Origin: a bacterium
Lineage (GTDB): Bacteria > UBP15 > UBA6099 > JAJRTR01
Assembly: GCA_024278215.1 (NCBI GenBank)
Contig: JAJRTR010000011.1
Span: forward strand, 25,583 to 89,582
Reading direction: 5' to 3'
Length of the DNA stretch: 64,000 nucleotides
A program made the translations under genes and the position numbers. The notes under the pieces are model-generated. The model saw only the letters and a program-made list of their open reading frames with translations, made no database searches and had not been told where the DNA came from. Numbering within the stretch: position 1 is the stretch's first letter; each line of letters starts with the position of its first letter. This document shows, in pieces, positions 11,295 through 43,456 of the stretch.

Positions 11295-11474
11295 GAGCCA
11301 ATTGCAAAATTCTGATTCGGCTGCGGTCGGCTGCAATTGTCCATAGCTGCGTTGTCGGCGCAAAATCATCCTCAACGTACTCCACGAGTACGCCTGCGGG
11401 GATTTTGCACTTCCGCCTTGCTTCTGAATAATTTCGTTCGACCTCGCTTCGAACATAATTTTGCAATTGGCTCG
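11295..11474 (-). mobile_element. MITE-like repeat, full copy A (~180 bp) with terminal inverted repeats GAGCCAATTGCAAAATT
   Basis: Near-identical to copies at 18101-18278 and 32940-33118, in opposite orientation. Flanked by a GTAT/GTAT direct repeat. Nested internal palindromes. Confidence 0.8.
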
Positions 11475-11507
11475 TATAAGTTCGCTTTTCGTTTGCTGTT
11501 TCCCCCA

Positions 11508-11780
11508 TCAATCCGCAGTTGCAGTCGCCTCTTCAGGTTCGATCGTATAGCCGCAATAGGGGCAGAACGGTTCATACTCACTGACGGGCTTTCCACATTT
11601 CACGCAGTCGAACTTTGCGATTTTTGTGGACTCGTGTTTCCCCTTTGCGTCGTCCACGCAGGTTCCGGATTCGTCTGCCGTATTCTCTCTCTTCGCTTTC
11701 AGATACCTGTTTGCCCCATAACCGATACCAAGAGCGGCGGCTGTTCCTGCGATGACAGCGAGCCAGGTGCGGTTCATCAT
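11508..11780 (-). CDS. Small membrane-anchored zinc-ribbon protein
   Basis: N-terminal hydrophobic segment; C4 ribbon CVKCGKPV...CPYCGY. ATGA overlap with the upstream TPR protein gene. Confidence 0.55.
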   Translation of the reverse strand: MMNRTWLAVIAGTAAALGIGYGANRYLKAKRENTADESGTCVDDAKGKHESTKIAKFDCVKCGKPVSEYEPFCPYCGYTIEPEEATATAD

Positions 11781-14700
11781 TCTCTCCTTCCCCTGCCCCG
11801 TTTGTTTTTAGCGCCCTGCATCAGCCTGCATTTTTCCCGGAGCACATTCCTTTTCGCCGCCGCCGCCTGGTAACTCGGGTCATGTTCAAGAATCCGCTCG
11901 AACTGCTTCATCGCCGAGCAATAGTCCTGCTTCTGTTCGAACGCCTGCCCGTATGAGAACAGGGCGTCCGTGTCGCTTGGTTTAATCACAAGCAGTTTCT
12001 CGAGATCACTTATCGCCTGGTTTATTTCCGATTCCGCTGTCTGCAGATCGTTCCTTTTCTCGGCGCGTTCCGAGTTCTGGATGTGTATGTTCGCCATCTT
12101 ATTGAGAATTCCAGGCCTTTCCGGGTCGACAGCGTGTGCTTTCATGCCGGCTTCGATAGCTTTTGCGTAATTGTTGTTGTTCTCATATTGTAATGCCTGC
12201 CGGTAGTACCACTGGTATATAACGATCTTATGTGTGAATATGTATAATATTCCCATGCCCATCAGAAATACTACGAGCAACCCGATTTTAATTATCTTGG
12301 GCATGAGTTGCTCCATTTCGACCATGGCCTTCTTTCCGACCTCTATCTCGAATGTTGGGATTGCATAAGGATTATCTTCTCCGTCATCAATATATGTCTC
12401 AATGTCTTCTTCATAAGTATCTTCAGCAGTGGTATTTTCAACAGCGTATTGATCGTCCGTCATGGTCTGATCGTCCATAGCTGCTCCTTCCTGTGAGTAG
12501 TCCGGCAGCGCTGCTTCAGGCTGGTAATCAGGCTGTTCCCCGGGCATAGGCGGCGGACCGTCCGGCTGCGTAGAATCCGGTTCCTCGAAAGCGGGAGCAG
12601 GCGCGACCGGCATTTGCGGCGCGAAGTCCTCGCCTGCCGTTGTATAGTCCGGCCCGGCGGCGGGAGGCGGCGCGAAATCGTCAGCAGGCATAGCAGGCGC
12701 TTCCGGATAATCCGCCGGTTCGGTATAGTCTCCCGCGGGCACCGGGGGCGGCGGTTCGTCGGGGCCGCCGCCTGTTTGACTCGCGAGAAACGCCTGCGGG
12801 TCCTCTATGCCGCCGGGCGCGGAGACATAGTCGTTGTCAACCGCCGGTGCGACAGGTTCCGTGTAGCTCTCTTCGCTGTATTCTTCCTGGTATTCCGGTG
12901 CCGGCTCTTCATATATTTCCGCCGGCTGATCGCCATACACCGCAGGGTCGGTATATTCAGGCTCGTAGTCCGCACCGGCATCCTGCGCATGCTGCGCCGC
13001 ATATCCGGCGGATGAATCTATTGTTGTCAGTATTGCTTTTCTGATAGAGAAATCTCCGACGTTTGGATTCGACGCCGTAATCGTTATCGAGTCGCCGATC
13101 GATGACGGCGCTGTATATGATGTCGTAACTTCTCCGTTATCGTCGCTAAGGGTCTGCGCCTGCTCGCCGAGTGCGCCGGGAGCGCCTGTGTATCCATCCA
13201 TCGAGATCGCAACGAATTCGCCGGGTACGGGATTATCGAATGTATCGGTTATTCTTGCAGCAATATCTATTGTTTCGCCGGGTTCGAGTTCGAGTTTCGG
13301 CGCGATTATTTCTATCATTTCGGGTGCGCCGGGCGCGACATTTATTGTTATACTGTCAGCGGTCGCGCCCGATGAAATATTTACCGTAAAGCTGCCGCAT
13401 GTGCCGGAGGTTTTTACATGTGCCACGGCTTCTCCCGAAAGATCGGGCTCGACATCCACGAAGCGTCCGCTTTCCACGCCGCCCGGCGCGAGCATGACTG
13501 CCGCCGCACCCGGGCCTATATCTTCGATCAGTTCAAACCTTACTATGTCCGACGACGGCGCTCCGTCACTGTGCTTCGCGGTTATTTTGATCGGTACTAC
13601 CTCTCCCGCACAGCAGGCAAGAGATTCATCGGGTTTTATGAAATATATATCGCCGCCCGTAGCCTGTACCTGCTCCTGCGGCGGAGAAAACATATCCGGT
13701 TCAGAATAGTCTTTTGTCGGCTCGAACGCCGGTTCCGAATCATCGGGCAGCGGGAATGAATTGTCGAATTGCGCGGTCGGCTGCGGTTCGTCGAATGAAG
13801 GTTCTTCAACTGCGGTTGAATATTGGTCTTCGCCGGGCTGTGTGTCGTCAGGGAGTACGAACAAGTCATCAGGCGCAGCATCGGCAACCGGTTCCGTATA
13901 GGTATTTGACGGGGCGGTCAGCTCATCCGCACCGGCATCAACAACGTCGAATTGATCCTGTGGCGGCGCAGCTTCCTCGTCGAGCATCGAGCCGAGCACA
14001 TCGAGAGTGCTGCCGCCGGGCACCGGTTCAGCATGTGCGGGAGGGGCGACAGGTGGAGACTCCGGAACGTCCGTATCGTCCGTATATGAGGACGCAGCGC
14101 CGGCGGCATCGTAGTCGAGGCTGTCGAACCCGCCTGCTTCTTCGTTTTCAGGCGCGAATTCATCGACAGTGGCGGGTTGGTCCGCGGGTGCGTAATCCTG
14201 CGAGGCGGTTTCTCCCGCCATATCCGGCAGTCCTGCGAGGCTGTCACCGCTCAGTTCCACATCGAGAAGATGTGGGTCGTGCGATGCGGGTGGCTCGTCG
14301 TCGAACTCACCGCCGAACTCGTCATATACGACTTCATCGGCTGTTTGCGAACTCTCTGCCCCGACTGTTTCCACACGGGACCGCGCTGTAATCGTTGCAG
14401 GCAGGTATTCGGACCGGGGCGCGAACACGGCGGTCGCCCCGGCAGTGCCGGGCGCTGTCACATTTACCGTAATTCCGCCGTCCATTCCCGTAGTTGCCGA
14501 AGATGCTTCTGAAAGCAGCCATTCGCCGCCACTGGATTCTTCTATTATGATCGTTGCCGGGACGCCGTCTATCGGGTTGTCGTACTCGTCTAGCAGTCTC
14601 ATCTTTATCGCGAATTGTTGTCCGGGCACAACCGTTGTTTCGGCAGGGATGAACATCGCAAAGTTCGCTTGTCCGGGTACAACATTGAATTCGACATTGT

Positions 14701-15781
14701 CTTCAAAACCGGTTGTTTTGCACGCTACTTCGAATCTGCACCTGGTGTGTCCGCGTGTCGGCATGCGGAATACGCGCGTGAGCCGGCCGGTACCGTCGGT
14801 TTTTATATTATCATTATCTACGACTTCCCACTCGGTCTTTGTCTGCATCTGCAACGACAACGCCAGTTCGGTATCCGCAACCGGATTATCGAATTCATCG
14901 TAAGCCTCGATGCGGAATTCGACTTCCTGCGCTGTCCGGTACTGGTTGCCGCGCGGTGAAATCTCCACCCTTGCAATATCCGCCGCGTGTGTATTGTCTT
15001 CGAAAAACTGAGGCGGAAGTTCATCGGTTTTTATTTCTATTTTGTTCGAGCCTGCAATCTTTGATCTTCTGAAGAATATCTTTGCTTTTCCGTCGTTGTC
15101 GGTTTTCAGGTGGAGTTCGTCGGGGCCCTGTTCGGCGTTCGCGCGCTCGGGAGTCAGGGCGATGAAGGCATCCTGAAGTCCCTGGTCGCAAACCAGTTTG
15201 AAGCATACAGTTGCCTGGGCGACGGGGATGTCCCTGTCGCCCAGAACAGTTGCGGACACGGAGTCATAGGACCATACACGTGAGGAAATGTTTTCCAGGG
15301 CAGGTTCGATGATAAGTTTTACAGGCTTAAGGCCGACCTGGCCGCGCGGCCTGTCGATGGCGGGCCTTGTGGCAAGGTCCACCGGGGAACCTTCCGCCGG
15401 TGCGGCTATTCCTGATGCGGCGGTGATTCCCGGGTCGAGATTCTGATCGTTGCCGGTGGCGCCGTCTTTGTCTGAAGCGGATTTCTTGTATTCCGCTACT
15501 GCCTTGCCCAGCGGTCCCGAAAGGAGCGAATCGAGTCCGGCATCAATATGTTGTGTCGCATAAGATGTGTTCAGTTCGATCGCTTTCTTGTACATCTGAT
15601 AAGCTTCGTCTTCGAGTTTTTTTTCTTCGAGGGTTTCAGCAAGATGATAATAGGCAGCCGAATACTCCGGCTCGAGGTTGATCGCCTTCCGGAAATTGGC
15701 TATAGCCTCGTTGTATTTCTGATCCTTGGTCAATGTGTTGCCAAGTGTGTGAAATTTTACTGCCCGTGGGTCAAGAGACAT
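11777..15781 (-). CDS. Giant TPR-repeat membrane protein with Ig-like (Big) domains and a ~400-aa acidic Pro/Tyr-rich disordered region
   Basis: 1334 aa. N- and C-terminal TPR motifs, several Big-like beta domains, a single TM near the C-terminal TPR block, and an extreme D/E/P/Y-rich low-complexity core. Confidence 0.7.
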   Translation of the reverse strand: MSLDPRAVKFHTLGNTLTKDQKYNEAIANFRKAINLEPEYSAAYYHLAETLEEKKLEDEAYQMYKKAIELNTSYATQHIDAGLDSLLSGPLGKAVAEYKKSASDKDGATGNDQNLDPGITAASGIAAPAEGSPVDLATRPAIDRPRGQVGLKPVKLIIEPALENISSRVWSYDSVSATVLGDRDIPVAQATVCFKLVCDQGLQDAFIALTPERANAEQGPDELHLKTDNDGKAKIFFRRSKIAGSNKIEIKTDELPPQFFEDNTHAADIARVEISPRGNQYRTAQEVEFRIEAYDEFDNPVADTELALSLQMQTKTEWEVVDNDNIKTDGTGRLTRVFRMPTRGHTRCRFEVACKTTGFEDNVEFNVVPGQANFAMFIPAETTVVPGQQFAIKMRLLDEYDNPIDGVPATIIIEESSGGEWLLSEASSATTGMDGGITVNVTAPGTAGATAVFAPRSEYLPATITARSRVETVGAESSQTADEVVYDEFGGEFDDEPPASHDPHLLDVELSGDSLAGLPDMAGETASQDYAPADQPATVDEFAPENEEAGGFDSLDYDAAGAASSYTDDTDVPESPPVAPPAHAEPVPGGSTLDVLGSMLDEEAAPPQDQFDVVDAGADELTAPSNTYTEPVADAAPDDLFVLPDDTQPGEDQYSTAVEEPSFDEPQPTAQFDNSFPLPDDSEPAFEPTKDYSEPDMFSPPQEQVQATGGDIYFIKPDESLACCAGEVVPIKITAKHSDGAPSSDIVRFELIEDIGPGAAAVMLAPGGVESGRFVDVEPDLSGEAVAHVKTSGTCGSFTVNISSGATADSITINVAPGAPEMIEIIAPKLELEPGETIDIAARITDTFDNPVPGEFVAISMDGYTGAPGALGEQAQTLSDDNGEVTTSYTAPSSIGDSITITASNPNVGDFSIRKAILTTIDSSAGYAAQHAQDAGADYEPEYTDPAVYGDQPAEIYEEPAPEYQEEYSEESYTEPVAPAVDNDYVSAPGGIEDPQAFLASQTGGGPDEPPPPVPAGDYTEPADYPEAPAMPADDFAPPPAAGPDYTTAGEDFAPQMPVAPAPAFEEPDSTQPDGPPPMPGEQPDYQPEAALPDYSQEGAAMDDQTMTDDQYAVENTTAEDTYEEDIETYIDDGEDNPYAIPTFEIEVGKKAMVEMEQLMPKIIKIGLLVVFLMGMGILYIFTHKIVIYQWYYRQALQYENNNNYAKAIEAGMKAHAVDPERPGILNKMANIHIQNSERAEKRNDLQTAESEINQAISDLEKLLVIKPSDTDALFSYGQAFEQKQDYCSAMKQFERILEHDPSYQAAAAKRNVLREKCRLMQGAKNKRGRGRRE

Positions 15782-15789
15782 GTTCTGTT

Positions 15790-17220
15790 TTACGCCCTCC
15801 TGCGTTCATACGATGATGGAATTCTCAGTTCTTCTCTGTACTTTGCGACAGTTCTTCGGGCAAGTTTGATGCCTTTCTCAAGCAAAATATCGCGTATGCG
15901 ATTATCTGAAATAGGCTTCTTCGCATCCTCGTTGAAGATGAGGTTTTTTATATATTCCTTAGGCCGGATGGAAGAGTCGAAAAAGAAATCGAAACTGAAT
16001 ATTTCGCCCGATGGAACCCGGATGAATTTTCCCGACATTGCCCTTGAAACCGTCGATTCGTGCAGTTCGATTTTTTCCGCGAGCCGTCCTTGCGTCAGTT
16101 CAGTATTGAAATTGGGTAATCCCTTAATGAGGAATTCCGCCTGCTCCTCACATATCGCTTTTGCTATTTTGTCGAGTGTCTGCTTCCTCTGCTCGATGCT
16201 GTCCTGGTAGAACTTTGCGCGCCTGAAATATTCTCGGACATGGCTCATGTCTTTTCGAGTTATCTCTGTATTGCCCTGCTTGTATGACCTGTACATGTCG
16301 AGATATGTGCTGTTTATCCTGAGCCTGAAATCCGCAAGTTCGAGAACTTCATAGCTGAGCGCCTTTCCGTCATACCGTATCTCTATCGCCGGTTTTGCCA
16401 GTTGCACAGCATCGGTGCTGCGGCCCATATAAGCACGGCCCGGATAAGGGTTCAGGTTTCTGCGTATGAAATCAAGTGTTTCCCTGACACGGCTGACGGG
16501 CACTTCAAGTTCCGTGGCGATTCTCTCATATCTATTTTTTCCGAGGTTTTCGAAGTGCTGATCGATTATCCTTTCCGCGAGTTCGCAGCCTTTTCCTTCC
16601 TCGGCCAGTACGTTCAACTGTATCAGAAGCGCTTCGCGTGCGTCGCGCGCCCCGACACCCGCAGGCTCCAGCGTCTGGATCACTTTCACCACTTCATCAA
16701 TCACCTCGGGCGTGGTCTCAAACATATCGGCAATTGCTGTTTCATCATACGTGAGGAACCCGTCTTCGCTGATCGAGTGCACCAGGAATTCGCCTAGTTC
16801 TTTTGTGCCTTCAGGATATTCGGACGCAAGGAAATTGAGTGTGAGATAATCTCTGAATGAAGTCTCGCGCGATGTGAAACTGGTAAAAGATGTCGCGTCT
16901 TCTCTCTCGCCGATCGGCCCCTCGTAGGGTGCGCTGTCGCCGTCATATTCCATAATTCTCTGCTGGATGAATTGCTCTGTCTGTTCCTCCTCCAGATTGT
17001 CTTTCCTTCCGCAATGTTCGCATCGTGTGCCGTTCATGGGTCTTCCGCAGTGAGGGCATGTAACGATATTTTCGATCTCGAGGGCCGGGTTCTCGCTCAG
17101 TTCCTTCTGTATCTCCTGCACAAGCTCGATTACCGGCATCTGCAAAAGCTGCTGCGATTGGATAAACTGCGGACTAAGGGTTTGTATCTGCTTAAGCGAT
17201 GTGACCAGCTTGATTTCCAA
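15790..17220 (-). CDS. rpoN: RNA polymerase sigma-54 factor RpoN
   Basis: Gln-rich region I; region III; C-terminal RpoN box ARRTVAKYRE. Contains an unusual C4 zinc-ribbon (CPHC...CEHC) in region II. Confidence 0.85.
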   Translation of the reverse strand: MEIKLVTSLKQIQTLSPQFIQSQQLLQMPVIELVQEIQKELSENPALEIENIVTCPHCGRPMNGTRCEHCGRKDNLEEEQTEQFIQQRIMEYDGDSAPYEGPIGEREDATSFTSFTSRETSFRDYLTLNFLASEYPEGTKELGEFLVHSISEDGFLTYDETAIADMFETTPEVIDEVVKVIQTLEPAGVGARDAREALLIQLNVLAEEGKGCELAERIIDQHFENLGKNRYERIATELEVPVSRVRETLDFIRRNLNPYPGRAYMGRSTDAVQLAKPAIEIRYDGKALSYEVLELADFRLRINSTYLDMYRSYKQGNTEITRKDMSHVREYFRRAKFYQDSIEQRKQTLDKIAKAICEEQAEFLIKGLPNFNTELTQGRLAEKIELHESTVSRAMSGKFIRVPSGEIFSFDFFFDSSIRPKEYIKNLIFNEDAKKPISDNRIRDILLEKGIKLARRTVAKYREELRIPSSYERRRA

Positions 17221-17512
17221 GACGCCTGCTCCGGTTCCCTTACATGCAAAACTAATTAAGTTTTATGAACTTAATCATTAGATATATATACACACATCAT
17301 GCTGTCGGCTAAACATAATTCTACAAAACACATGCCATCCGATCAAGCTTTATTATGATTTATACATACGGAATTACTGTATTTTCCCTGCATTCAGGAT
17401 GATCTTTCGTTATGTTACGTCGCCTCCGCGCTGTAATCCGGGAAATCATTTATACGAATCGGATTGCCCCGGTATCGGGAAAAAGATAAAATATATGTGA
17501 CACAATTGTCGA

Positions 17513-17558
17513 CAATTGCAGCCGACCGCAGCCGAATCAGAATATTGCAATCGGCTCA
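17513..17558 (+). mobile_element. Solo 3'-end fragment of the MITE-like repeat
   Basis: caattgcagccgaccgcagccgaatcagaatattgcaatcggctc matches the last ~45 bp of the full copies. Confidence 0.65.
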
Positions 17559-17578
17559 AGGAAAATGAGGCACGATCT

Positions 17579-17995
17579 ATGGATGGAGTTTCCAGGTTCA
17601 GCGTTTCAATACCGCATGATCTTCTCGGGAAGTTTGACATGTACCTGAAGGAAAAAAGGTATCAGACACGGTCCGAGGGCATCAGGGACCTGATGCGTAA
17701 TGCCCTGATTGCAGAAGAATGGGATGACCCCGCGGCGGAAGTAATGGGTACGATATCAATTGTATACGATCATCACACGAGAGAACTTGATGAAAAATTG
17801 AAAGAGATACAACACGCCCATTATGAAGGGATAATTTCCACGACGCATGTGCATGTGGATCATCATAACTGTTTCGAGGTCATGCTGGTTCGCGGCCGGG
17901 CGGATGCCATCCGCAAGATCGGCAATATGCTCATCAGCGCCAGGGGCGTCAAGGTGGGCAGGATCACACTTTTAAGCACTGGAAAGAACATTTAA
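17579..17995 (+). CDS. nikR: Nickel-responsive transcriptional regulator NikR (RHH + C-terminal metal-binding domain)
   Basis: RHH motif FSVSIPHDLLGKFD; C-terminal His/Cys motifs (HHTREL, HAHYEG, HVHVDHHNCFEV). The ORF-track start at 17516 lies inside the MITE fragment, so the start is more likely the Met at 17579. Confidence 0.75.
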   Translation: MDGVSRFSVSIPHDLLGKFDMYLKEKRYQTRSEGIRDLMRNALIAEEWDDPAAEVMGTISIVYDHHTRELDEKLKEIQHAHYEGIISTTHVHVDHHNCFEVMLVRGRADAIRKIGNMLISARGVKVGRITLLSTGKNI

Positions 17996-18100
17996 AGAGA
18001 AAAAATCTTCAAACACGTTAAAATAGCATACTTTAGCGCACAATAGGATATTTATTTTACTCGACTATTTCGAACTTTCATAGTATTATATAGTCTAATA

Positions 18101-18278
18101 GAGCCAGTTGCAAAATTATGTTCGTAGCGAGGTCGAGCGAAATTGTTCAGAGCAAGGCGGAGGTGCAAAATCCTCGCAGGCGTACTTGTAAAGTACGTCG
18201 AGGACGATTTTATGCCGACAACGCAGCTATGGACAATAGCAGCCGACCGCAGCAGAACCAGAATTTTGCAATTGGCTC
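18101..18278 (+). mobile_element. MITE-like repeat, full copy B
   Basis: Terminal inverted repeats GAGCCAGTTGCAAAATT ... AATTTTGCAATTGGCTC. Flanked by a TAATA/TAATA direct repeat. Confidence 0.8.
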
Positions 18279-18352
18279 TAATAATATGTAAGATTTGCAA
18301 TGTGCTCGAAAGTGTGATGTTTGAATTATACGTTTTTCCGGGAGGATTCGGC

Positions 18353-19300
18353 ATGAAGAGAAACATCTGTATATCAATATTGATTATTTCATTATTGCTG
18401 GTTTTCGGGGCAAAATCGGCCAGGGTGTGTGCGACGGAATTCGAGGTGGCCACGGCCCCGGTTTCCGTAGCGGTGATCGACACCCGGACAGCAGTCGAAG
18501 ATATCACAAGAGCAAAAACAATGATCGAGTCGGAAAACGCGGGAGCAGATGAATTGAAAATGCTCATCGGACATGCAATGCACGTCCTGAGAGGTCCGTT
18601 GCCCAATGGAAAGGGCTATCATCTCGCTACGGTCGATATGGGCGACGATGTCGAGAACACGAACCTTATGAGCGTAAAGATCGACGCAATATGGGAACTC
18701 GGACAGAAGAAAACCATAACTGCCGAGTTGTCTTCGGTATATAAATTTATTATTTATTCACCGCTTCACAGGGGATTCTTCAAGAATAACGGTAACTTCT
18801 ACCTGGACTCCTACACTGTGGAATATACGATAAATGGAATCACCGAATCGAAGACTGTCGAGTACAAGGACTGGATTACAAGAGACAGCACACTTGAGGT
18901 TCCGCTTCCGGGAATAGCGGAATGGGCGAAGCTCGAACTGGTAGTCGGTGTCGAACCGGCGGACGTAAACAACGCGATTTTACAGATTTATGCCAGACAG
19001 CCTGTCGTGGACGATGACCCCAAGAATCCATTTTCGTATTCCATTTCGATGCTTGCCGAAGCGAAAGATAGAATCGAGATCGGCAGACGCCTCAAAGAAA
19101 TCGAGAAATTTCTCGACGAAGCCCTGCTCGGCATAAAAGTCGCAAAGACTTATGCCGCAGATGCGTCTGTTGTCGCCGGGGGACGTGGAATCTCCGTGCA
19201 GGAACTCGAACGTATCCTCTACTTGCTTGAAGGCAACGCGCTCGAAAACGATGAAGGTGTAGAGGAATTAAAAACACTGCTTGAGAAACAAAAGAAGTAA
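18353..19300 (+). CDS. Secreted hypothetical protein (signal peptide)
   Basis: Met at 18353 preceded by a GGAGGA RBS; N-terminal MKRNICISILIISLLLVFGA signal sequence. No recognisable domain. The upstream ORF-track extension runs through the MITE. Confidence 0.55.
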   Translation: MKRNICISILIISLLLVFGAKSARVCATEFEVATAPVSVAVIDTRTAVEDITRAKTMIESENAGADELKMLIGHAMHVLRGPLPNGKGYHLATVDMGDDVENTNLMSVKIDAIWELGQKKTITAELSSVYKFIIYSPLHRGFFKNNGNFYLDSYTVEYTINGITESKTVEYKDWITRDSTLEVPLPGIAEWAKLELVVGVEPADVNNAILQIYARQPVVDDDPKNPFSYSISMLAEAKDRIEIGRRLKEIEKFLDEALLGIKVAKTYAADASVVAGGRGISVQELERILYLLEGNALENDEGVEELKTLLEKQKK

Positions 19301-19609
19301 GAGCGGATTGAAAAAAAATGGTTTCCGGAGCCGATCGCGGCGAAAACAGGATATTGCAGCCGGCTCACCGGTAATCTTTTTTCAGACAAAAAAAATCCTG
19401 CCTTGCTTTTACCCGGATAAGGCAGGAGGAAACCGCGCTCAAAATTGACGAACGCGACATATTTGACGGTTCTCCGGACAACATGCCCGGAGTCCCGGTC
19501 GACTCTATAAATTTCAGGTTTTAAAGTGTTTTTTTGTAGGCCGTACATTTATACTATCCACGCGTTCCGCAATTTTTTCACTTGTTTTAAAAAATCTTTT
19601 CACGCATAA

Positions 19610-19632
19610 CCCGCATATTTCACTAATGCGGG
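19610..19632. repeat. REP-like palindrome (copy 3, inverted orientation)
   Basis: cccgcatatttcactaatgcggg, just 3' of the enoyl-CoA hydratase stop. Confidence 0.7.
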
Positions 19633-19656
19633 CCAAAAAACCATTCGTTCAGCAAT

Positions 19657-28230: not shown

Positions 28231-28253
28231 CCCGCACTTGTGAAATATGCGGG
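28231..28253. repeat. REP-like palindrome (copy 4)
   Basis: cccgcacttgtgaaatatgcggg, just 3' of the stop of the MetE-like gene. Confidence 0.75.
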
Positions 28254-28263
28254 CTACCCCATC

Positions 28264-29313
28264 TTACGTCTTTTCTTTGTTGCCTCTCAACACCCTTGAA
28301 AGCCGCGCCGTCAGGTCCAGCATCTTAACCGCCTGTCCGGGTGTCAGCGAGCCGGCCCCGCAGGTTGGTGTGATAAGCGCCTGCTCGAGAATCACATTCT
28401 CTTTTATGCCCTTCTTTTCAAGCAGTCTGACTCCATCCTTGAAAATGCCGGTCAGTTTGTTTATGTCCTGCGAATCTATCGCAACGGTGCTGGGCACAAC
28501 ACCCCAGGCCAGCAGGCCGCCGCGTTCGAGATAATCGAATATCTGCTTTGCATAAAGAGACAGCGATTCAGCATATTCGAAAGCGTCGAAATTTATTATG
28601 TCGACATTCGTGGACGCGATCAGCGACCAGTCCGTGTTCCCGCAGCAATGGATACCGGCGGAAGCGCCGGCGGCGTGAATATCGGCGATAACTTCATCGA
28701 GGCTTTTCACGACATCGTCGTACAGCAGCGGCACAGTAGCCGAACCGAAACTCTGCAAGTAGGGCTCGTCGATGAAAATAATAACTTCCGGGTTAAGTCG
28801 CTTCAGGAGCTGAGCCTGACGCCGCGCCTTGCGTCCGAGCCCCTTGACGACTCCATCCTTGAGCATATCGTCGTAGTATGACGCCCTGCCGTTCTGGTCG
28901 CACACGGTAAGACCGAAAGTTATGGGACCTGTGACATGTCCTTTAACAGCAAAATAATCTGTTCCCTTTTCCTTATATTGTCTAATGAATTCATAAAATC
29001 CCGGCGCGTAATCTTCGGATATGTCGAACGGTTCGAGCGCTTCAGACATATAAGTTTCGTAGAACTTTTCCATCACCCCCGGCAGCGCGTCGCCGGTGTC
29101 GGAACTGATCTTCTCATTTTTCGTATCCACTTTCACTGCCGGGATTCCCTCGCTGTACTGCGGGCACATCCCTTCGACAAAAGCGCGCGCCGGAAGCTGC
29201 GGCCACACGGGTATATCCACGAGGCACCTGAAGATATCTTCGAGTGCTTCTCCAGGTGTTTTATAAGGGAAGCTGCCTATAGCAGTCGCTCTGCAAGCGG
29301 GTTGAATATTCAT
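28264..29313 (-). CDS. Cobalamin-independent methionine synthase-like (MetE C-terminal/URO-D-like) protein
   Basis: 349 aa with the N-terminal AIGSFPY motif and the HCCGNTD zinc-binding motif typical of the MetE-like family. Confidence 0.5.
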   Translation of the reverse strand: MNIQPACRATAIGSFPYKTPGEALEDIFRCLVDIPVWPQLPARAFVEGMCPQYSEGIPAVKVDTKNEKISSDTGDALPGVMEKFYETYMSEALEPFDISEDYAPGFYEFIRQYKEKGTDYFAVKGHVTGPITFGLTVCDQNGRASYYDDMLKDGVVKGLGRKARRQAQLLKRLNPEVIIFIDEPYLQSFGSATVPLLYDDVVKSLDEVIADIHAAGASAGIHCCGNTDWSLIASTNVDIINFDAFEYAESLSLYAKQIFDYLERGGLLAWGVVPSTVAIDSQDINKLTGIFKDGVRLLEKKGIKENVILEQALITPTCGAGSLTPGQAVKMLDLTARLSRVLRGNKEKT

Positions 29314-29534
29314 TGCCGTTTGTTCCGTTCTCGTGTTTCAGATCGATTCGATCACAACAAAAAGCGGCTTGCAAAATCGCAGCGTACCGCTCGATTACAT
29401 TTTATTCAGGGTACATGAAAATACAAACAACTATTGGTTGATCGGTTTAAACTTTGTGGTATGAACACTGCAAAATACAGATAGCACGCATATTTAACAG
29501 ATGCGGGTGAAAAATAGAAAGTCAGATGCCGGAT

Positions 29535-31740: not shown

Positions 31741-31765
31741 CATCATATCAGTTCGGAGATTTTAA

Positions 31766-32290: not shown

Positions 32291-32292
32291 AA

Positions 32293-32895: not shown

Positions 32896-32939
32896 CTTCG
32901 TCAATAAAACGCCACTCCCGCGAAAGCGGAAGTCTATTT

Positions 32940-33118
32940 GAGCCAGTTGCAAAATTATGTTGGAAGTGAGGTCGAGCGAAATTGGTCTAAAGCAAGGCGG
33001 AGGTGCAAAATCCCCGCAGACGTACTTGTAGAGTACGTCGAGGAAGATTTTGCGCCGACAACGAAGCTGTTAACAATTGCAGCCGACCGCAGCCGAATCA
33101 GAATTTTGCAATTGGCTC
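32940..33118 (+). mobile_element. MITE-like repeat, full copy C
   Basis: Same terminal inverted repeats; flanked by an ATTT/ATTT direct repeat. Internal palindrome CGTACTTGTAGAGTACG. Confidence 0.8.
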
Positions 33119-33309
33119 ATTTAAATATCCCGGTTTTCTTTTTTAGTATCTTACGACTGAAATGCTACGCAGGATGGTAAAGAAATGCTGAAAAGAGATC
33201 GGGGAAAGCTGGAGCTTCCAGTAACAGGCGTTTCCAAGGTAAACCTTGGAAACGATGAAACTCTGTGTGCCGTGCTCAAACCGTAGACCGTGCGTGTGCC
33301 GTGCTCAAA

Positions 33310-33338: not shown

Positions 33339-33415
33339 CTGTTTGGTTCCGGCTACGCCGGGTTAGGTACTGATCAAGTAGATATTAACATAATCAGAGA
33401 AGGAGCAGCAATACC

Positions 33416-34621: not shown

Positions 34622-34863
34622 TCGTTCACAGGCGCATTGTAATCGGCGTAAGCAGCTTCGAGCGCCGGGAGTTTTCTGTTGCTTGAACATATTTCTTATA
34701 GAACTTGTGCGATTTTATAAAAGGTAGTGCCATGTCAACAAAGAAAAGATGTAAGATGGGGTAGCGTAAAAACTGTAAAAGTGTAGAGCGGGGTCACCCT
34801 GCACGTTCGTGCGACATTACATGCCTGACGTGACAGTAGTAGAATTTATGGCGACACGATCCG

Positions 34864-35178
34864 GAACAAAAGGTCAAATTTCAGTCATGCCGAACTTCTT
34901 CAACACCTTAAGGAGTGTCTCTTTGACTTGTATGGCGGTCGGTTCCGCAGGCTGGTGCTGTACGGCAGCGTGGCGCATACCCCCTCATGATAGAGGCTAA
35001 AAAAGAGGGAGCCCGGTCTGACTCTATGGAACAATCGAGCACGCGGAACATGAGGAGGCGGAAGACGATGTCGGAGCTTCCGGAAGAATACTCCGAGCCA
35101 TTCACAAAGCACATACGGATATTTTTCCTCTGGATGCGTTGGCGGTCGAAAGCGACAAAAGCGAATAAAAAAACATAA
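34864..35178 (+). pseudogene. Possible degraded nucleotidyltransferase (MNT-type antitoxin-like) remnant
   Basis: One frame reads AELLQHLKECLFDLYGGRFRRLVLYGSVAHTPS* (LFGS-like NTase motif) and continues out of frame. No intact ORF. Confidence 0.25.
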
Positions 35179-35304
35179 ATTTCATTTCTTCAGAAATATT
35201 CTTTACCCTGACATTGATATTATTAGTACTGGAATTCTGTGCGGGATATTTGTTGCGTTTTTTCAAGTGCCGAACATTCGCACAGAACTTGAAAAGGAAC
35301 AGGG

Positions 35305-36729: not shown

Positions 36730-37559
36730 TTGATTTTACAAATCTCATAAGTTTCTTTGAAAACTTCACCGTCTGGGACGGCGTGCGCTCTGTTATCGAG
36801 ATCACGATCATCAGCCTCGGCATATACTACCTTCTGCTGTTCCTTCAGAGGACGCGCGCCGTGGCGATCTTAAGAGGACTCGCGCTGCTGTTCCTTTTCG
36901 CCGCGGCGTCTTATGTCCTGCAACTCAACACGATTTTTTTCATCCTGAAGGGACTCGGCGCGGTCACGATCATCATCCTTCCGATTATATTCCAGCCCGA
37001 ACTTCGCCGCGGCCTCGAACAGATGGGCCAGCGCGGCCTGTGGCAGCGCAGGTTCGGCGGACTCGAAAAGGAACAGATAATAAAACTTATTCATTCGCTC
37101 GTGCTTACGCTCGAGGACCTTTCGATTGTGAAAATGGGTGCGCTGATTGTGCTCGAACAGGAATCGAAACTCGATGAATATTCGCGTTCGGGTACAAAAC
37201 TCGACGCCCTGCTTACGCCGGAACTTCTGAAAACAATCTTCTTCCCGCACACGTTCCTTCACGATGGGGCCGTGCTGGTGCGGGGCGACCGTGTGATGGC
37301 CGCCGGTTGTTTCCTGCCTCTGTCGGAGAATCCGAATCTGCCACAGGATGTAGGCTCGCGACACAGGGCCGCGCTCGGCATATCGGAAGTGACCGATGCC
37401 GTCGCGCTCACTGTTTCCGAGGAGACCGGCCGCATCTCTCTATCCCACAACGGGAAACTCATCCAGGACATCAAACCCGATGCCCTGCGCGAACTGCTTT
37501 ATTCGATTTGCTTCCCGCAGGGAACGACATTTTCTTCGCCCATTGGGAGTGACGATTGA
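36726..37559 (+). CDS. cdaA: Diadenylate cyclase CdaA (DAC domain, membrane-anchored)
   Basis: 3 N-terminal TMs; DAC motifs LHDGAVLVRGD, GSRHRAALGISEVTDA, VSEETGRIS. ATGA overlap with argH. Confidence 0.85.
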   Translation: MIDFTNLISFFENFTVWDGVRSVIEITIISLGIYYLLLFLQRTRAVAILRGLALLFLFAAASYVLQLNTIFFILKGLGAVTIIILPIIFQPELRRGLEQMGQRGLWQRRFGGLEKEQIIKLIHSLVLTLEDLSIVKMGALIVLEQESKLDEYSRSGTKLDALLTPELLKTIFFPHTFLHDGAVLVRGDRVMAAGCFLPLSENPNLPQDVGSRHRAALGISEVTDAVALTVSEETGRISLSHNGKLIQDIKPDALRELLYSICFPQGTTFSSPIGSDD

Positions 37560-38746
37560 GAAAAAAGATACTGAACAACTGGCGCTACAAAGTTTCCGCA
37601 ATAGTGATATCCACATTGCTGTGGCTCTTCATATATTCCGAACATCAGCCCCGCTTCAGGGCGGATTATCCCGTGAATATTCAATATCTGAACCTGCCGA
37701 TTTCGCTCCGGCTCGTCGACAGGGAAGACGTATTGAGAATAAGACTTCAGGGTGAACCGGCAGCACTCAATAACGTGAATAATGAAACCCTGAAAGCCAC
37801 TGTCGACCTGGCCGGGCTGGGCGAGGGAATCCACCGCGTGCAGGTCAAAGTCTTCAACAGCACCGGCGCGCGGCTCGTTCGTCGAAACCATAATGTGCAG
37901 GTCGAACTCGAAAAGCTCAACAGCATCGAAATGCCTGTCAAACTGGGCTTCTTCGGCTCTCTTCCGGTAGGCATGCGGCTCGGCCACGTTACCTTTACTC
38001 CTGAAAAAGTCGTCATCTACGGCCAGACCGACGAACTGGCGCTTGTCCATCTCGTTGTCGCGAATATCGACCTGACGGAAAAGCAAAAGACTTTTCGTGT
38101 TAATGTGCGCCTGTCGGCGGTCGACGACCAGGGCGTTCCGCTCGACGATACTGTGAAGATCGATCCTGAAAGGATTACCGCCGTTGTTCCGGTGAAAAAA
38201 GAATTCGTCAAGGTTGTGCCCATTACGCCCAGGTTTAAAAAGGGGTCCGGGAAAGGCGGGTTCTCGGAGGCGGATTTCTACCCGACTGTCGTCAATCTCG
38301 TCGGCAACGAAGACGCGCTACGGGATATTAAAACTATAGAGACCGAAGAGTTCGACCTTTCGCGCTGCGAAGAGGGCGGCGTCTTCCCGCTCAGGCTGGA
38401 TACACCCAGAAATGTATTCGCAAATGTCGATCGTGTTACTCTCTCATGCAGGTCCGGTCAGGAAATAACACTATCCTTCCTCGTGAATATAAAAGTACTC
38501 AATCTGTGCGAAAACTGCACGTATCAATTAATTCCGAAAAAAATGAAAGTGACTATTACGGGACCTGACAACAAAGTTAATCAGATAAATATCTCGCAGA
38601 TATCCGCGGTTGTCGATGCGCTGGGACTCAAAGAGGGCACACACGACGTGCGATTGCATGTGGAACTCTCGCCGGGTGTCGAAAACGCACAGCTCGACTT
38701 CAATCGGGATAAAGTGAAACTGGTGATTTCGAAGAAAGAGGAATAG
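37556..38746 (+). CDS. cdaR: CdaA regulatory protein CdaR (YbbR-like repeats)
   Basis: N-terminal TM plus repeated YbbR-like beta domains; conserved position between cdaA and glmM. Confidence 0.75.
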   Translation: MRKKILNNWRYKVSAIVISTLLWLFIYSEHQPRFRADYPVNIQYLNLPISLRLVDREDVLRIRLQGEPAALNNVNNETLKATVDLAGLGEGIHRVQVKVFNSTGARLVRRNHNVQVELEKLNSIEMPVKLGFFGSLPVGMRLGHVTFTPEKVVIYGQTDELALVHLVVANIDLTEKQKTFRVNVRLSAVDDQGVPLDDTVKIDPERITAVVPVKKEFVKVVPITPRFKKGSGKGGFSEADFYPTVVNLVGNEDALRDIKTIETEEFDLSRCEEGGVFPLRLDTPRNVFANVDRVTLSCRSGQEITLSFLVNIKVLNLCENCTYQLIPKKMKVTITGPDNKVNQINISQISAVVDALGLKEGTHDVRLHVELSPGVENAQLDFNRDKVKLVISKKEE

Positions 38747-38751
38747 CATCA

Positions 38752-40113
38752 ATGGGAAATGGTAAAACCCGCAAGAAGATATGTTTCGGCACGGACGGCA
38801 TAAGAGGAGTAGCCAACAGCGAACTCACGCCGGAAGTGGCCCTGCTGATAGGAAAATGCACGGCGCACCAGTTGTGCAATGGCGCGGAGGGCCGCGTGAT
38901 GGTGGCAAAAGACACACGTGTTTCCGGCGACATGCTCGAAGCCGCGCTCGTCGCCGGTATCCTCTCCACCGGCGCGGATGTCTGGCGCATCGGCATCGCC
39001 CCCACCCCGGCACTTGCCTATCTCACAAACATTCGCAATTGTGATTGCGGGCTCATGATCTCCGCCTCTCACAATCCCGTCGAAGACAACGGCATAAAAG
39101 TTTTTTCAGGGAAAGGCTACAAGCTCGATCAATCCGTCGAAGACTGCATCGAGTCGCTTATGTGTGATTGCGGTGCCTCGTGCCGCGCGGTCGGCGGCGA
39201 CGGTGTCGGATATTCGATCAATAAATCTAATATCACCGGAGAATATGTCGACTTTGTGCGCGGTCTGCTCGAAGGTGTCCATTTCGACAAACCTGTTGTT
39301 GTCGATTGCGCCTATGGCGCCGCGTCGCGCTCAGCAAAACGTATCTTTAAAAATGTTTCCGCTGAAATGATTTTCATGCACAGCGATGAAGACGGAAAGA
39401 AAATAAATGTCGATTGCGGCTCGACCCGGCCCGGGTCGCTACAGAAGAAAGTGCTCAAACACGGCGCGGCGCTCGGTTTCGCGTTCGACGGCGACGGCGA
39501 CAGGGTGATTTTCGTAAACGAAAAGGGAGAAGTCGTCGACGGCGACCAGGTCATGCTCCTGTGCGGACGCAAGTTCATCAAAGACGGGAGGCTCAAGGGC
39601 AACACCGTCGTCTCAACCGTAATGAGCAACATGTCGCTTGAAAAAGAGATAGCAAAACTCGGCGGAAAAATGCTGCGCACTCCTGTGGGCGACAAATATG
39701 TCCTGAGGGAAATGAAAAGAAATGGCTATATACTCGGCGGCGAGCAGTCGGGCCACATAATTTTTCTCGACCGCTCGACCACCGGCGACGGGCTTCTCAC
39801 TGCCGCCGAAGTCCTCAAAATCGTCACAGAAGACGGTCGCCCTTTCTCCGAGCAGACACTGCTCGAACGCTCGGCGCAGTTCCTGAAAAATGTCCGTGTG
39901 CCCGACAAAGAATCATTCTATGAAAGCAAAGTTATCTCCGCGAAAGTCAGCGAAATCGAGAACCGGCTTGGAGAAAGCGGCAGGGTGGTTGTCCGCCCTT
40001 CGGGCACCGAACCGCTGATTCGCGTCATGGTCGAGTCATGGGACAAAACCGTCGCGGAAGCATACACCGACGAAATAATTGATACAGTAAAAAACGTGTT
40101 TGAATTGAGTTGA
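38752..40113 (+). CDS. glmM: Phosphoglucosamine mutase GlmM
   Basis: GTDGIRG; active-site loop SASHNPVEDNGIK. 453 aa. Confidence 0.9.
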   Translation: MGNGKTRKKICFGTDGIRGVANSELTPEVALLIGKCTAHQLCNGAEGRVMVAKDTRVSGDMLEAALVAGILSTGADVWRIGIAPTPALAYLTNIRNCDCGLMISASHNPVEDNGIKVFSGKGYKLDQSVEDCIESLMCDCGASCRAVGGDGVGYSINKSNITGEYVDFVRGLLEGVHFDKPVVVDCAYGAASRSAKRIFKNVSAEMIFMHSDEDGKKINVDCGSTRPGSLQKKVLKHGAALGFAFDGDGDRVIFVNEKGEVVDGDQVMLLCGRKFIKDGRLKGNTVVSTVMSNMSLEKEIAKLGGKMLRTPVGDKYVLREMKRNGYILGGEQSGHIIFLDRSTTGDGLLTAAEVLKIVTEDGRPFSEQTLLERSAQFLKNVRVPDKESFYESKVISAKVSEIENRLGESGRVVVRPSGTEPLIRVMVESWDKTVAEAYTDEIIDTVKNVFELS

Positions 40114-40171
40114 ATCGAAGGTATTGACGGCGACCGGCTGAAGCGCCATGGAATCCGCGATGTCGTAACAA

Positions 40172-41095
40172 TCACTTTTGTGCAAAATCAATTATCGCTT
40201 CAGCAGTTTTTTCAGGTTTCTGCATCGGGAACATGTGACCGACATTCTTAAATTCAACGAACTCGGCTTCCGGTCGTATCTTCTTGAGCAAACGCCATGA
40301 TTTATCAGTCACGACATCGGAGTGCTCGCCTCTCACGATAAGTGTCGGCGTTTTTATCTTCTTTATCCATTTCCATATATCCGTCGGTACCGACTCGAAC
40401 AGCACCGCCTCGATTTCCGGTGGGCAGGAAAGTTCCACACCGCCGGGAACATCAGCCAGATCGTAGTCTATATAGCTGCGCAGCATCGTTTCCGACCAGC
40501 CTCTGAACAACTTCTTGTCATGAAAATACGCGAATGCCTCGTCGCGCGACTTCCATCCGTTACACCGTTTGCGGGCTCCGGCGGAGAGGGGGAACCTGTG
40601 TTTCTGTCCCGCCAATGTCGCAACTTTTATCAACGCGATAGTTTTCGGTTCGAGAAATACCGGGTCCAGAAGTATAAGCTTCCTGAAAAGCGCCGGTCTC
40701 TTCACCGATGCGATCGCCGCCAGGGCACCGCCCATCGAATGGCCCACTCCGACTACCGGTTCCCTGACCACCACTTCCAGGAACTCTATCAGTTCGTCTA
40801 CAAGCTGGAACCAGTTTTTTATCTCCGGTTTGTTCAATCCACAATCGTAGCGGCACCGCGAAAGATGACAGGCGTTCAAGCCGAATGTGTGGAAACGATC
40901 GCCGAGAAGATTGAATATGTATTGATAAGTTCCGGCTCCGAACCCGTTTGCATGGCCGAAGTGCAGCCGAGCGCCACTGCCGGTTTCGATATAGTTGAGG
41001 CAGGTATTGCCTGTCTGAAATTTCTTCAGTTCCATCGTTATGCTTACACACAGATGCAACGACACAGTCGTTGCATTCCAGGTATTTTCAAACAC
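40172..41095 (-). CDS. Alpha/beta-fold hydrolase
   Basis: Nucleophile elbow GHSMGG; 307 aa. Confidence 0.7.
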   Translation of the reverse strand: MFENTWNATTVSLHLCVSITMELKKFQTGNTCLNYIETGSGARLHFGHANGFGAGTYQYIFNLLGDRFHTFGLNACHLSRCRYDCGLNKPEIKNWFQLVDELIEFLEVVVREPVVGVGHSMGGALAAIASVKRPALFRKLILLDPVFLEPKTIALIKVATLAGQKHRFPLSAGARKRCNGWKSRDEAFAYFHDKKLFRGWSETMLRSYIDYDLADVPGGVELSCPPEIEAVLFESVPTDIWKWIKKIKTPTLIVRGEHSDVVTDKSWRLLKKIRPEAEFVEFKNVGHMFPMQKPEKTAEAIIDFAQK

Positions 41096-41135
41096 CTTAT
41101 TTAAATACTCTCCAGTGAACGGTGATAAATAAGGG

Positions 41136-41282
41136 TGTTAGCGTCAATACTGTTTACTTAAGGTCACGCCCGGCCACAGGCGGGACGCCTGTGCTACTGT
41201 ATCTCACAGCATCGCAGCAGTACGACAGGCGTCTCGCCTGTCGTAAAAAGCATTAAGTAAACGGTATTGGTGTTAGCGTACA
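41136..41282. ncRNA. Candidate structured element: long closing inverted repeat enclosing two similar GC-rich hairpins
   Basis: AATACTGTTTACTTAAG (41146-41162) pairs with CTTAAGTAAACGGTATT (41255-41271). Internal hairpins acaggcgGGACgcctgt and gacaggcgTCTCgcctgtc. Direct repeat GGTGTTAGCGT at both ends. Confidence 0.35.
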
Positions 41283-41395
41283 AAACAACAAAAAAGACGC
41301 TGGAATCCGTGTCTTAACTTTTTTTGCAATCAAACTTTTCAAAAAACAGTTTTCACTTAATTTGGACACTACCAAAATAAATCCTTGAACGATGA

Positions 41396-42043
41396 TCACC
41401 GGAGGATACCGATTCTACCCGGTGGCCAGAAACGGAAGAAGGCCTTTGCCTGTATATTTTTCTCCGGCAGCAAACCCCATATACGGCTGTCCAGACTGTT
41501 GTTCCTGTTGTCTCCCATCATGAAAAGATACCCCTTGGGAATCTTTCTCATCGGATAGTCCCTGCGAGGCGGCGCTTTTATATACGGCTCGTCCAGCGGC
41601 ACTCCGTTCAAAATCACTTTCCCGTCTTTTACGGCAATCGTATCACCGCCGACCGCCACCACTCTTTTGAGAAACGAAGTTATTTTACCGTGTTCGCTTT
41701 CCGCGACCACATCCGGCGGCCTGAAAGCAATAATGTCACCGTGCTTCGGCTCATGCAGCCTGTACACGAATCTGTTGCCGAACACCCTGTCGCGCGGTAT
41801 TATCGTCGGCTCCATCGAGCCTGTCGGGATCATGTATGCCTGTATGAAAAACGACTTTATTATCAGCGCCAGTATCAGCGCGATGACAATAGATTTCACC
41901 CACTCGATTATTTCGTCGACCATTCCCGGTTTTTCTTTGCCGCTTTTCGCGGCGGGCGCCGCACCCGGCCCGCCGACCGGTTCTTCGCTTCCGCCGAATC
42001 CGGTATTCTCTGTTTCGTTAATGTCCAACTCGCTTGCCTCCAT
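41396..42043 (-). CDS. lepB: Signal peptidase I
   Basis: Catalytic-Ser box IPTGSMEPT; motifs GDNRNNSLDSR and GDIIAF. N-terminal G/P/A-rich extension and a TM. Confidence 0.85.
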   Translation of the reverse strand: MEASELDINETENTGFGGSEEPVGGPGAAPAAKSGKEKPGMVDEIIEWVKSIVIALILALIIKSFFIQAYMIPTGSMEPTIIPRDRVFGNRFVYRLHEPKHGDIIAFRPPDVVAESEHGKITSFLKRVVAVGGDTIAVKDGKVILNGVPLDEPYIKAPPRRDYPMRKIPKGYLFMMGDNRNNSLDSRIWGLLPEKNIQAKAFFRFWPPGRIGILR

Positions 42044-42131
42044 TCGACTGTCTCGATATCGCTTACGGCCTCATCCTATCGCTCGGATTACATTCGTTTC
42101 GACAGACGACTACAGATTTTATATCACATAA

Positions 42132-42190
42132 GAGCCAATTGCAAAATTCCGGTTCCGCCGCGGCAGGCGGCAATTGTCCCTGGCCCCGTT
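42132..42190 (-). mobile_element. MITE-like repeat end fragment
   Basis: gagccaattgcaaaattccggttccgccgcggcaggcggcaattgtcc matches the terminal inverted repeat plus subterminal region of copy A. Confidence 0.6.
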
Positions 42191-42270
42191 GCCGGTAAGA
42201 TTACATCGCCTGAAGTGATTATCCATAACCTGATCGCGGGATGCCGCTTTTGCATATAATGTAAAAATAT

Positions 42271-43374
42271 GTGTGTTATCCTTTATATTATAATATGATG
42301 GTAGATCTCGCTGTCAGGTCATTGAGCTACAGGCTCTTCTACTACACGGGCATGCCGCCGCTGCTGCCTGTGACGCTTGCGGTCAGTGTCACCCGAAGAT
42401 GCAACGCGCGATGCAGGACATGCCGGGTTTACACACGCAAAAGCGAAGAATTAACGATCGGTGAATACGAAAAAATATTCGAATCGCTTTCAAGGGTTCC
42501 GCGGTGGATCACTTTTACAGGCGGCGAACCGTTCATGCGCAAAGACCTCTGCGGTATCATAGACGCCGCGGCCCGATATATACGACCCGACGCTATTACA
42601 ATTCCCACAAATGGCTGGTATACGGAACGAGTTCTGAAATTCGTGGGCGACACAGTGAAAAAAAATCCCGGGATAAAATTCATAATAAATATTTCACTCG
42701 ATGGGATCGGTGCGGCGCATGATGCCAACAGAGGACTTGAGGGCTGTTTTGAACATGTGCGCGAGACTTTTTTCGAGTTGCGGGAACTGAACGATGTGCC
42801 GAACCTGCACCTCGGAATAAACACTGTAATATCAAGGTATAACATTGACGGAATCCCGGACCTGATTAAATATGTGGGTACAATGGAACCGGACACACAT
42901 ATTTTTGAACCCGCCCAGCAGCGCAAAGAACTTCGCGTCAACACGCTGGACCTCGAACCTCCACTCGACAAATACACAAAGCTGTTGCCGTTGCTGTCAG
43001 AAGCCGGACAGCCCGGCAACAACAACCGTTTCACACAGGCAATCGGCAGCTTCAGACGTGAATATTACAGGCTGAGCCTGAAGATAATGAAACGCAGCGA
43101 GCAGGTCATTCCCTGTTTCGCGGGAATAGTCTCAGCGCACATATCGCCGGGCGGGAACGTGTGGCCTTGCTGCACACTCGCGAGTCCCATGGGCAATCTG
43201 CGCGACAATCGATACCGGTTCGACCGTGTGTGGGACAGCAGGGAAGCCTCACAAATCAGGAAATACATCAGGGCGAGACGCTGCTACTGCGCAATGGCCA
43301 ATGCTTCATACTCCAACATCGCTATGAATTTCGCTTCGATGCTGCGCATAGCCGCACGTTTTGCTGTTGGATAA
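42271..43374 (+). CDS. Radical SAM enzyme with C-terminal SPASM-like Cys-rich domain
   Basis: Cluster motif CNARCRTC (CxxxCxxC). C-terminal CFAG...GNVWPCC...C...C auxiliary-cluster cysteines. Confidence 0.7.
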   Translation: MCYPLYYNMMVDLAVRSLSYRLFYYTGMPPLLPVTLAVSVTRRCNARCRTCRVYTRKSEELTIGEYEKIFESLSRVPRWITFTGGEPFMRKDLCGIIDAAARYIRPDAITIPTNGWYTERVLKFVGDTVKKNPGIKFIINISLDGIGAAHDANRGLEGCFEHVRETFFELRELNDVPNLHLGINTVISRYNIDGIPDLIKYVGTMEPDTHIFEPAQQRKELRVNTLDLEPPLDKYTKLLPLLSEAGQPGNNNRFTQAIGSFRREYYRLSLKIMKRSEQVIPCFAGIVSAHISPGGNVWPCCTLASPMGNLRDNRYRFDRVWDSREASQIRKYIRARRCYCAMANASYSNIAMNFASMLRIAARFAVG

Positions 43375-43393
43375 ACAGCGCCGGAAGTCATTT

Positions 43394-43456
43394 GAGCCAT
43401 TTGCAACATTCTGATTCCGCTGCGGCCTCGCTACGAACATAATTTTGCAATCGGCT
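43394..43456 (-). mobile_element. Internally deleted mini-copy of the MITE-like repeat (both ends retained, ~63 bp)
   Basis: gagccatttgcaacattctgattccgctgcgg joined to cctcgctacgaacataattttgcaatcggctc; this matches the 5' and 3' ends of copy A. Confidence 0.6.

Follow-up and report, generated by a model that had tools for sequence, protein, structure and literature searches.

The window analysed here is a 64-kb stretch of contig JAJRTR010000011.1 (assembly GCA_024278215.1) from an uncultivated bacterial lineage. A Pfam scan of approximately 50 main open reading frames (ORFs) identifies it as an ordinary chromosomal region that carries a chemotaxis operon (cheB, a methyl-accepting chemotaxis protein (MCP) gene, cheW, cheA, cheR and cheY), genes for a GGDEF response regulator and a giant TPR/Ig protein, rpoN, nikR, ruvC, ruvA, argG, argH, a dacA/ybbR/glmM group, lepB, genes for a radical-SAM/SPASM enzyme and a diacylglycerol (DAG) kinase, uvrD and others. 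Seven copies and fragments of a non-coding repeat of approximately 179 bp lie between these mutually unrelated housekeeping genes, all of them intergenic and in both orientations. We consider it very likely that these repeats are a previously uncatalogued MITE (miniature inverted-repeat transposable element) family that is moved in trans by a DDE transposase.

Results

Using an nhmmer profile built from the three full copies to search the window, we obtained seven family loci, which are given here together with one doubtful relic:

Full copy A, 11295-11473, minus strand, 179 bp; flanked by GTAT (11291-11294) and GTAT (11474-11477); the stop of a small zinc-ribbon gene lies 34 nt before it and the start of the GGDEF response-regulator gene 106 nt after it
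Full copy B, 18101-18278, plus strand, 178 bp; flanked by TAATA (18096-18100) and TAATA (18279-18283); the nikR stop (17995) lies on one side and, on the other, a gene at 18353-19300 with an apparent signal peptide in its product
Full copy C, 32940-33118, plus strand, 179 bp; flanked by ATTT (32936-32939) and ATTT (33119-33122); the ruvA stop (32895) lies on one side and the argG start (33416) on the other
Mini copy, 43394-43457, minus strand, 64 bp, internally deleted with approximately 32 nt of each end kept; between the radical-SAM gene stop and the DAG-kinase gene start
Solo right end, 17503-17557, plus strand, 55 nt, stopping exactly at GGCTC; nikR begins approximately 20 nt downstream (start codon at 17579)
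Solo right end, 42132-42200, minus strand, 69 nt, with a perfect terminal repeat; in the divergent lepB / radical-SAM spacer
Solo left end, 1672-1718, minus strand, approximately 47 nt, with three mismatches in the terminal repeat (E = 1.4e-5); between cheB and the upstream MCP gene
Doubtful relic, 19327-19365, no strand assigned, 39 bp, GAGCCGATCGC...ATATTGCAGCCGGCTC; resembles both element ends joined

The seven loci correspond to one per approximately 9 kb, a density figure that comes from a single 64-kb sample. An initial annotation of this DNA had counted six or more copies and called the density high, which holds, although it missed the solo left end at 1672-1718. It had placed the full copies at the right sites, with the end of copy A one base too far (11474, which is the first base of the flanking GTAT), had correctly recognized the mini copy as an element but ended it at 43456 (approximately 63 bp), and had located the other two solo ends at 17513-17558 and 42132-42190, where the profile search now sets different limits. 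Its possible relic of approximately 40 bp is without statistical support (nhmmer E = 0.18; no blastn match at E ≤ 1). The three full copies are 88.8–90.5% identical in pairwise comparison, with a mean column identity of 91% (alignment over 178–179 bp), and copy A is the reverse complement of copies B and C, which agrees with the inverted copy A and the identity of approximately 90% noted at first. In all seven loci, solo ends included, similarity ends exactly at the GAGCC / GGCTC terminus by both blastn and the nhmmer profile.

Both ends of every full copy consist of a perfect 17-nt terminal inverted repeat, GAGCCARTTGCAAAATT, in which position 7 (A or G) is the sole variable position among the full copies. 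At up to three mismatches GAGCCARTTGCAAAATT has 12 matches in the window compared with 0.5 expected, and none of 100 shuffles reached 12, confirming the terminal inverted repeats reported earlier. Across the three copies 1 of 34 terminal-repeat columns is variable, compared with 26 of 145 interior columns (Fisher p = 0.03); the stronger conservation of the ends is what would be expected if copies with intact ends are favoured.

Alignment of the flanks (GTAT, copy A, GTAT; TAATA, copy B, TAATA; ATTT, copy C, ATTT) yields a direct repeat of 4 bp at each full copy, and these AT-rich 4-mers differ from copy to copy (GTAT for A, AATA for B and ATTT for C). The repeat at copy B is most simply read as a 4-bp duplication plus one coincidental matching base. 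Of the target-site duplications of 4–5 bp proposed initially, the flanking repeats and the 4-bp length stand and the 5-bp case probably falls away. Two 4-mers at the spacing of the element are identical by chance in 0.5–0.6% of cases in the window, AT-rich contexts included. With a chance match of approximately 0.5% per copy, flanking duplications at three out of three copies are therefore not due to chance.

Some resemblance also extends beyond the duplicated bases. The left flank of copy C (32927-32939, CGGAAGTCTATTT) and one flank of the mini copy (43382-43393, CGGAAGTC-ATTT) have 12 nt in common, and the left flank of copy B (AGTCTAATA) loosely resembles this motif, as does the left flank (AGTTAAAT) of an element on a contig from another organism, L007, that is described below. 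The motif CGGAAGTCTATTT was considered as a repeat family in its own right and rejected, as the window shows no enrichment of it.

The element has no coding capacity. The three copies are shifted into different reading frames by indels, and their six-frame peptides have no match among 5.8 billion proteins, neither to spurious ORFs on other copies nor to a transposase terminus. Because the elements encode nothing, a transposase that moves them would have to act in trans. As the initial annotation had stated for the window, there is no transposase, and likewise no integrase or Y1 enzyme, among the approximately 50 main ORFs scanned with Pfam; three ORFs without a Pfam match do not resemble transposases, and one of these begins with an apparent secretion signal peptide. 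Two mechanically called ORFs, 17516-17995 and 18143-19300, begin inside the repeat sequence (TTG at 17516 and 18143), and the likely true starts are ATG 17579 for nikR and ATG 18353 for the gene with the apparent signal peptide.

The incomplete copies look like products of deletion and decay. The mini copy has two mismatches in one terminal repeat and one in the other, and is flanked by ATTT on one side and GTAT on the other; given these mismatched repeats and the lack of a duplication, it fits an old, decayed copy. Two larger units were considered and rejected. One is a MITE-flanked composite of the 17503 fragment, nikR and copy B, which conflicts with the duplication that copy B has on both of its own sides. 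The other is an insertion sequence (IS)-like unit with cargo at 42132-43457 (terminal repeat, radical-SAM gene, terminal repeat), which is rejected because the radical-SAM/SPASM gene is genuine and conserved in repeat-free syntenic relatives and because the unit has no flanking duplication.

The nearest relative, with 84% RpoN identity, comes from Logan sample SRR28370467, no closer one being present in the databases searched, and two of its contigs (L005 and L039) are syntenic with the window. L005 holds rpoN and the genes for the TPR giant, the zinc-ribbon protein and the GGDEF regulator, and the spacer that in the window measures approximately 320 bp with copy A inside it is 105 bp long on this contig. 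L039 spans the genes from argG to the response regulator, and its radical-SAM / DAG-kinase spacer is 126 bp long compared with 191 bp in the window. Around the mini-copy site the stop codon is followed by 20 nt and G(C/T)ATATTG in the window as well as in L039, and the mini copy of the window lies exactly between these 20 nt and that motif. Neither contig contains any trace of the element.

In a more distant relative, L042 (65% RpoN identity, JGI sample 3300033148), there is one solo right end (9549-9606), the 17-nt terminus of which is perfect, and six additional relatives' loci contain no element. Since approximately 154 kb of relatives' DNA, partly redundant, thus holds just this one fragment, the family is a lineage-specific expansion in the window's genome.

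The same termini occur on an unrelated element elsewhere. A scan of metagenome contigs for two inverted terminal repeats 130–160 nt apart gave a single match, on L007, a contig of 43.9% GC from another organism. This contig carries a 166-bp element downstream of a CN-hydrolase gene, which has the same terminal repeats as the window family, a completely unrelated interior and its own AAAT/AAAT duplication. In type II MITEs only the terminal repeats are in common, a pattern that the L007 element fits (PMC10969869). With the same ends, an unrelated interior and a duplication of its own, the L007 element demonstrates that the 17-nt terminus together with the 4-bp duplication is a unit recognized independently of the interior.

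Each full copy folds as one long hairpin (-76 to -81 kcal/mol, z-scores -7.4 to -9.7), as had been suggested from the nested palindromes. Beyond the terminal repeats, an ungapped comparison within copies B and C gives approximately 54–62% identity between the left half and the right half read as its reverse complement. The whole element is therefore an imperfect palindrome, and either strand can form the long hairpin.

The window also contains a second, unrelated family, a 23-nt near-perfect palindrome, CCCGCATATTTCACAAATGCGGG, with six copies compared with zero expected by chance:

23-nt palindrome copies: 390-412, 1765-1787, 19610-19632, 28231-28253, 29485-29507 and 58510-58532

All six follow the end of a gene, approximately 10–90 nt past its stop codon (those of cheB, MCP, enoyl-CoA hydratase, an unknown ORF, a CHASE2 protein and uvrD), and the family looks like a repetitive extragenic palindromic (REP)-like element or a common terminator hairpin. 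One copy is abutted by an arm of a 30-nt inverted repeat pair, GCTACCCCATCTTACGTCTTTTCTTTGTTG (28253-28282 / 34736-34765), the arms of which are 97% complementary and 6.4 kb apart. Within the gene at 49585-50472, two tandem 87-nt direct repeats (49972-50160, 102 nt apart, 84% identity) code for DUF4215 repeats rich in Cys, Asp and Gly, located upstream of a C-terminal TonB domain.

Discussion

Prokaryotic MITEs are described as elements of less than 500 bp with terminal repeats of approximately 4–30 bp that fold into a stable stem-loop, occur in several copies at AT-rich intergenic targets, are flanked by direct repeats when younger and often have truncated derivatives (PMC10969869). The window family agrees with this description in every structural point that can be tested, namely length, terminal repeats, duplications, lack of coding, multiple intergenic copies, AT-rich targets and stem-loop, and the MITE-like interpretation given at first is thereby supported.

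Stable structure and gene-proximal placement could also be read as signs of a host-selected structured element, such as an mRNA stabilizer, a terminator, a processing site or a small-RNA gene, in which case function rather than transposition would keep the loci similar. The stability of the predicted hairpins is indeed very high (z of -7 to -10), several copies lie just after stop codons (A, C and the mini copy) or in 5' leaders (17503 of nikR, 42132 of lepB/radical-SAM and 1672 of cheB), and one pair of the central stem has a compensatory change (C-G / U-A / U-G). However, this is the only two-sided change among 68 predicted pairs, of which approximately 9 have one-sided changes that keep the pairing and approximately 12 are broken in one copy, and the covariation term of the three-copy fold is unfavourable (+1.46). 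Rfam has no match across the window at the gathering threshold and none for copy C at E ≤ 1. Given these pair changes, the covariation term and the lack of an Rfam match, the hairpin is probably not under selection and a by-product of the element's origin. Selection on structure would also leave unexplained the 4-bp duplications, the exact termini and the same-ended element with an unrelated interior, and it sits poorly with the absence of the element at the syntenic sites of the closest relative. Hence, we regard host selection as improbable.

Even less probable in our view is a palindrome of the REP or bacterial interspersed mosaic element (BIME) type that a RAYT, an IS200/IS605-like single-strand transposase, would have spread, or an element of the same family that is associated with palindromes. 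The repeats are palindromic, intergenic and present in many copies, and the separate 23-nt palindrome family in the window is truly REP-like. REP and IS200/IS605-derived elements, however, are not known to carry terminal inverted repeats between target duplications, and they insert beside a fixed tetra- or pentanucleotide, whereas the flanking 4-mers here are duplicated and different at each copy. In addition, the element is approximately 179 bp long with terminal repeats, not 20–40 bp, and there is no Y1 transposase among the window ORFs scanned.

We see next to no chance that the repeats are a conserved regulatory region of paralogous genes, a reading that the initial annotation had named among those that would refute its own, or an assembly or chance artefact: nothing beyond the repetition itself speaks for it, the neighbouring genes are unrelated (GGDEF regulator, nikR, ruvA/argG, lepB, radical-SAM gene and cheB), which therefore rules out a regulatory region common to paralogues, the loci occur in both orientations and at both 5' and 3' positions relative to genes, a divergence of approximately 10% between copies excludes duplicated assembly, and the observed terminal-repeat count was reached in 0 of 100 shuffles.

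A transposon reading therefore accounts best for the window family, with several points that weigh against it. The duplication evidence comes from three window copies and the one element on L007, and the mini copy has no duplication. The 12 nt common to the flanks of copy C and the mini copy (CGGAAGTC(T)ATTT) may be an extended target preference or chance. The element is absent at two syntenic spacers of the nearest relative, but intergenic spacers of this relative are approximately 60–70% identical to those of the window, which is too diverged for a nucleotide-exact empty site. Searches of the window, of the approximately 154 kb from relatives and of the plasmid and viral collections found no transposase or full-length IS with these termini. 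In the genome collection at least four loci match a 20-mer from the terminal repeat, and all the matches listed are to the 20-mer only and thus chance.

In viral contigs 31 single terminal-repeat matches are close to the chance estimate and none has an inverted partner; one viral candidate (L031) was rejected as its terminal-repeat match lies inside an apparent coding sequence. Searches of the plasmid collection by blastn returned nothing or chance-level matches for copy C, for the L007 element and for a left end of 45 nt, and a literature string search for the terminal repeat found no paper.

In the mechanism that we propose, a DDE-type transposase would bind the 17-nt terminal repeats GAGCCARTTGCAAAATT and excise or copy the element (cut-and-paste or copy-out); its gene would lie elsewhere in the genome or have been lost since. 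Integration would proceed by a 4-bp staggered cut in AT-rich intergenic DNA, the repair of which would leave the 4-bp flanking duplication. The hairpin is most likely a remnant of the origin of the element, either by inverted duplication of one IS end or from two similar IS ends after internal deletion. Older copies would then have decayed to the 64-bp mini copy and the solo ends by internal and one-sided deletions.

The family has close parallels in organization among known repeats. Correia elements (NEMIS) of Neisseria are likewise non-coding and intergenic, approximately 100–200 bp long and dense, with terminal inverted repeats and a long stem-loop (PMC10969869). Promoter-like hexamers in the repeats are another possible likeness, whereas the sequence of the terminal repeats is unrelated and the host lineage different. 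Correia elements reach a density of the same order as one per approximately 9 kb and have 26-bp repeats and a TA duplication, compared with 17-nt repeats and a variable 4-bp duplication here. QMITE2 of Coxiella burnetii and Chunjie of Geobacter uraniireducens resemble the window family in their length of approximately 180–235 bp, their intergenic or 3' untranslated position, the mixture of full-length, truncated and end-less copies and the conservation of terminal and direct repeats in younger copies (PMC10969869). QMITE2 differs in its 23–29-bp terminal repeats and 7–9-bp direct repeats, and neither has sequence similarity to the window family or shares its host lineage.

ERIC is also an imperfect palindrome (approximately 127 bp), intergenic and very variable in copy number between related genomes, much as the window family is abundant in its own genome and nearly absent from relatives. 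ERIC is not known to have clear target duplications or a transposase. The window family, in contrast, has crisp terminal repeats and duplications. In the 64-kb sample its density is similar to that of the most repeat-rich cases, for example ERIC in Photorhabdus with 711 copies (PMC10969869).

Rfam, plasmids, viral contigs and literature strings offer no sequence similar to the family. Its termini begin with GAGCC and its duplication is 4 bp long. In the ISfinder family table, GAG or Ga/g ends combined with 2–4-bp duplications are listed for IS5-superfamily groups (IS427, IS5 and IS1031) and for ISAzo13, which we take as a lead to possible parents only. The preferred target of the IS5 group is YTAR; a derivative of this group would agree in duplication length, but none of the duplicated sequences GTAT, AATA, ATTT and AAAT has this form.

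Insertions of this kind may have consequences for the host. TTGCAA, located in the terminal repeat 7 nt from the element end, forms outward sigma-70-like promoter sites together with hexamers in the flanks, as consensus matches only. One such match, TTGCAA-17-TAAAAT, faces lepB (42116-42145, minus strand, at the solo end 42132), and another, TTGCAA-17-TATAAT, lies at the left end of copy B (18085-18114, minus strand), antisense to nikR. By their sequence, outward TTGCAA hexamers may form hybrid promoters, for example for lepB. A sigma-54 promoter in the terminal repeat was rejected by eye, given that the GG and GC elements have neither the spacing nor the order of such a promoter.

Upstream of rpoN, approximately 130 bp (TTGAT.GGATGG...TTTTGTAGAATTATGTTT) are conserved in three genomes (window 17221-17600; L042 9480-10000; L005 170-540). 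Beyond this conserved promoter each genome has a different upstream neighbour, namely nikR, apbA or the terminal part of an unidentified ORF. Solo MITE ends lie at this synteny breakpoint in two of the three genomes (window and L042); rearrangement by recombination between copies would fit this pattern, which is not proof of it.

In most respects the family is an ordinary example of a well-known class and opens no question of long standing. Its contribution is a MITE family, not described in the sources searched, that comes from an uncultivated bacterial lineage. If seven loci in 64 kb are typical, hundreds of copies are possible in the genome, and that many would affect the assembly of metagenome-assembled genomes, given that repeats break contigs. 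The element also misleads ORF finders by extending start codons into its sequence, as in the ORFs at 18143 and 17516. More tentatively, and on balance unlikely as we see it now, the 17-nt terminus GAGCCRATTGCAAAATT might mark an uncatalogued IS or transposase lineage that is active across distant bacteria and is the source of unrelated MITE families, such as those of the window and L007, with copies that have host consequences. The conserved 17-nt terminus provides a direct handle on the cognate transposase.

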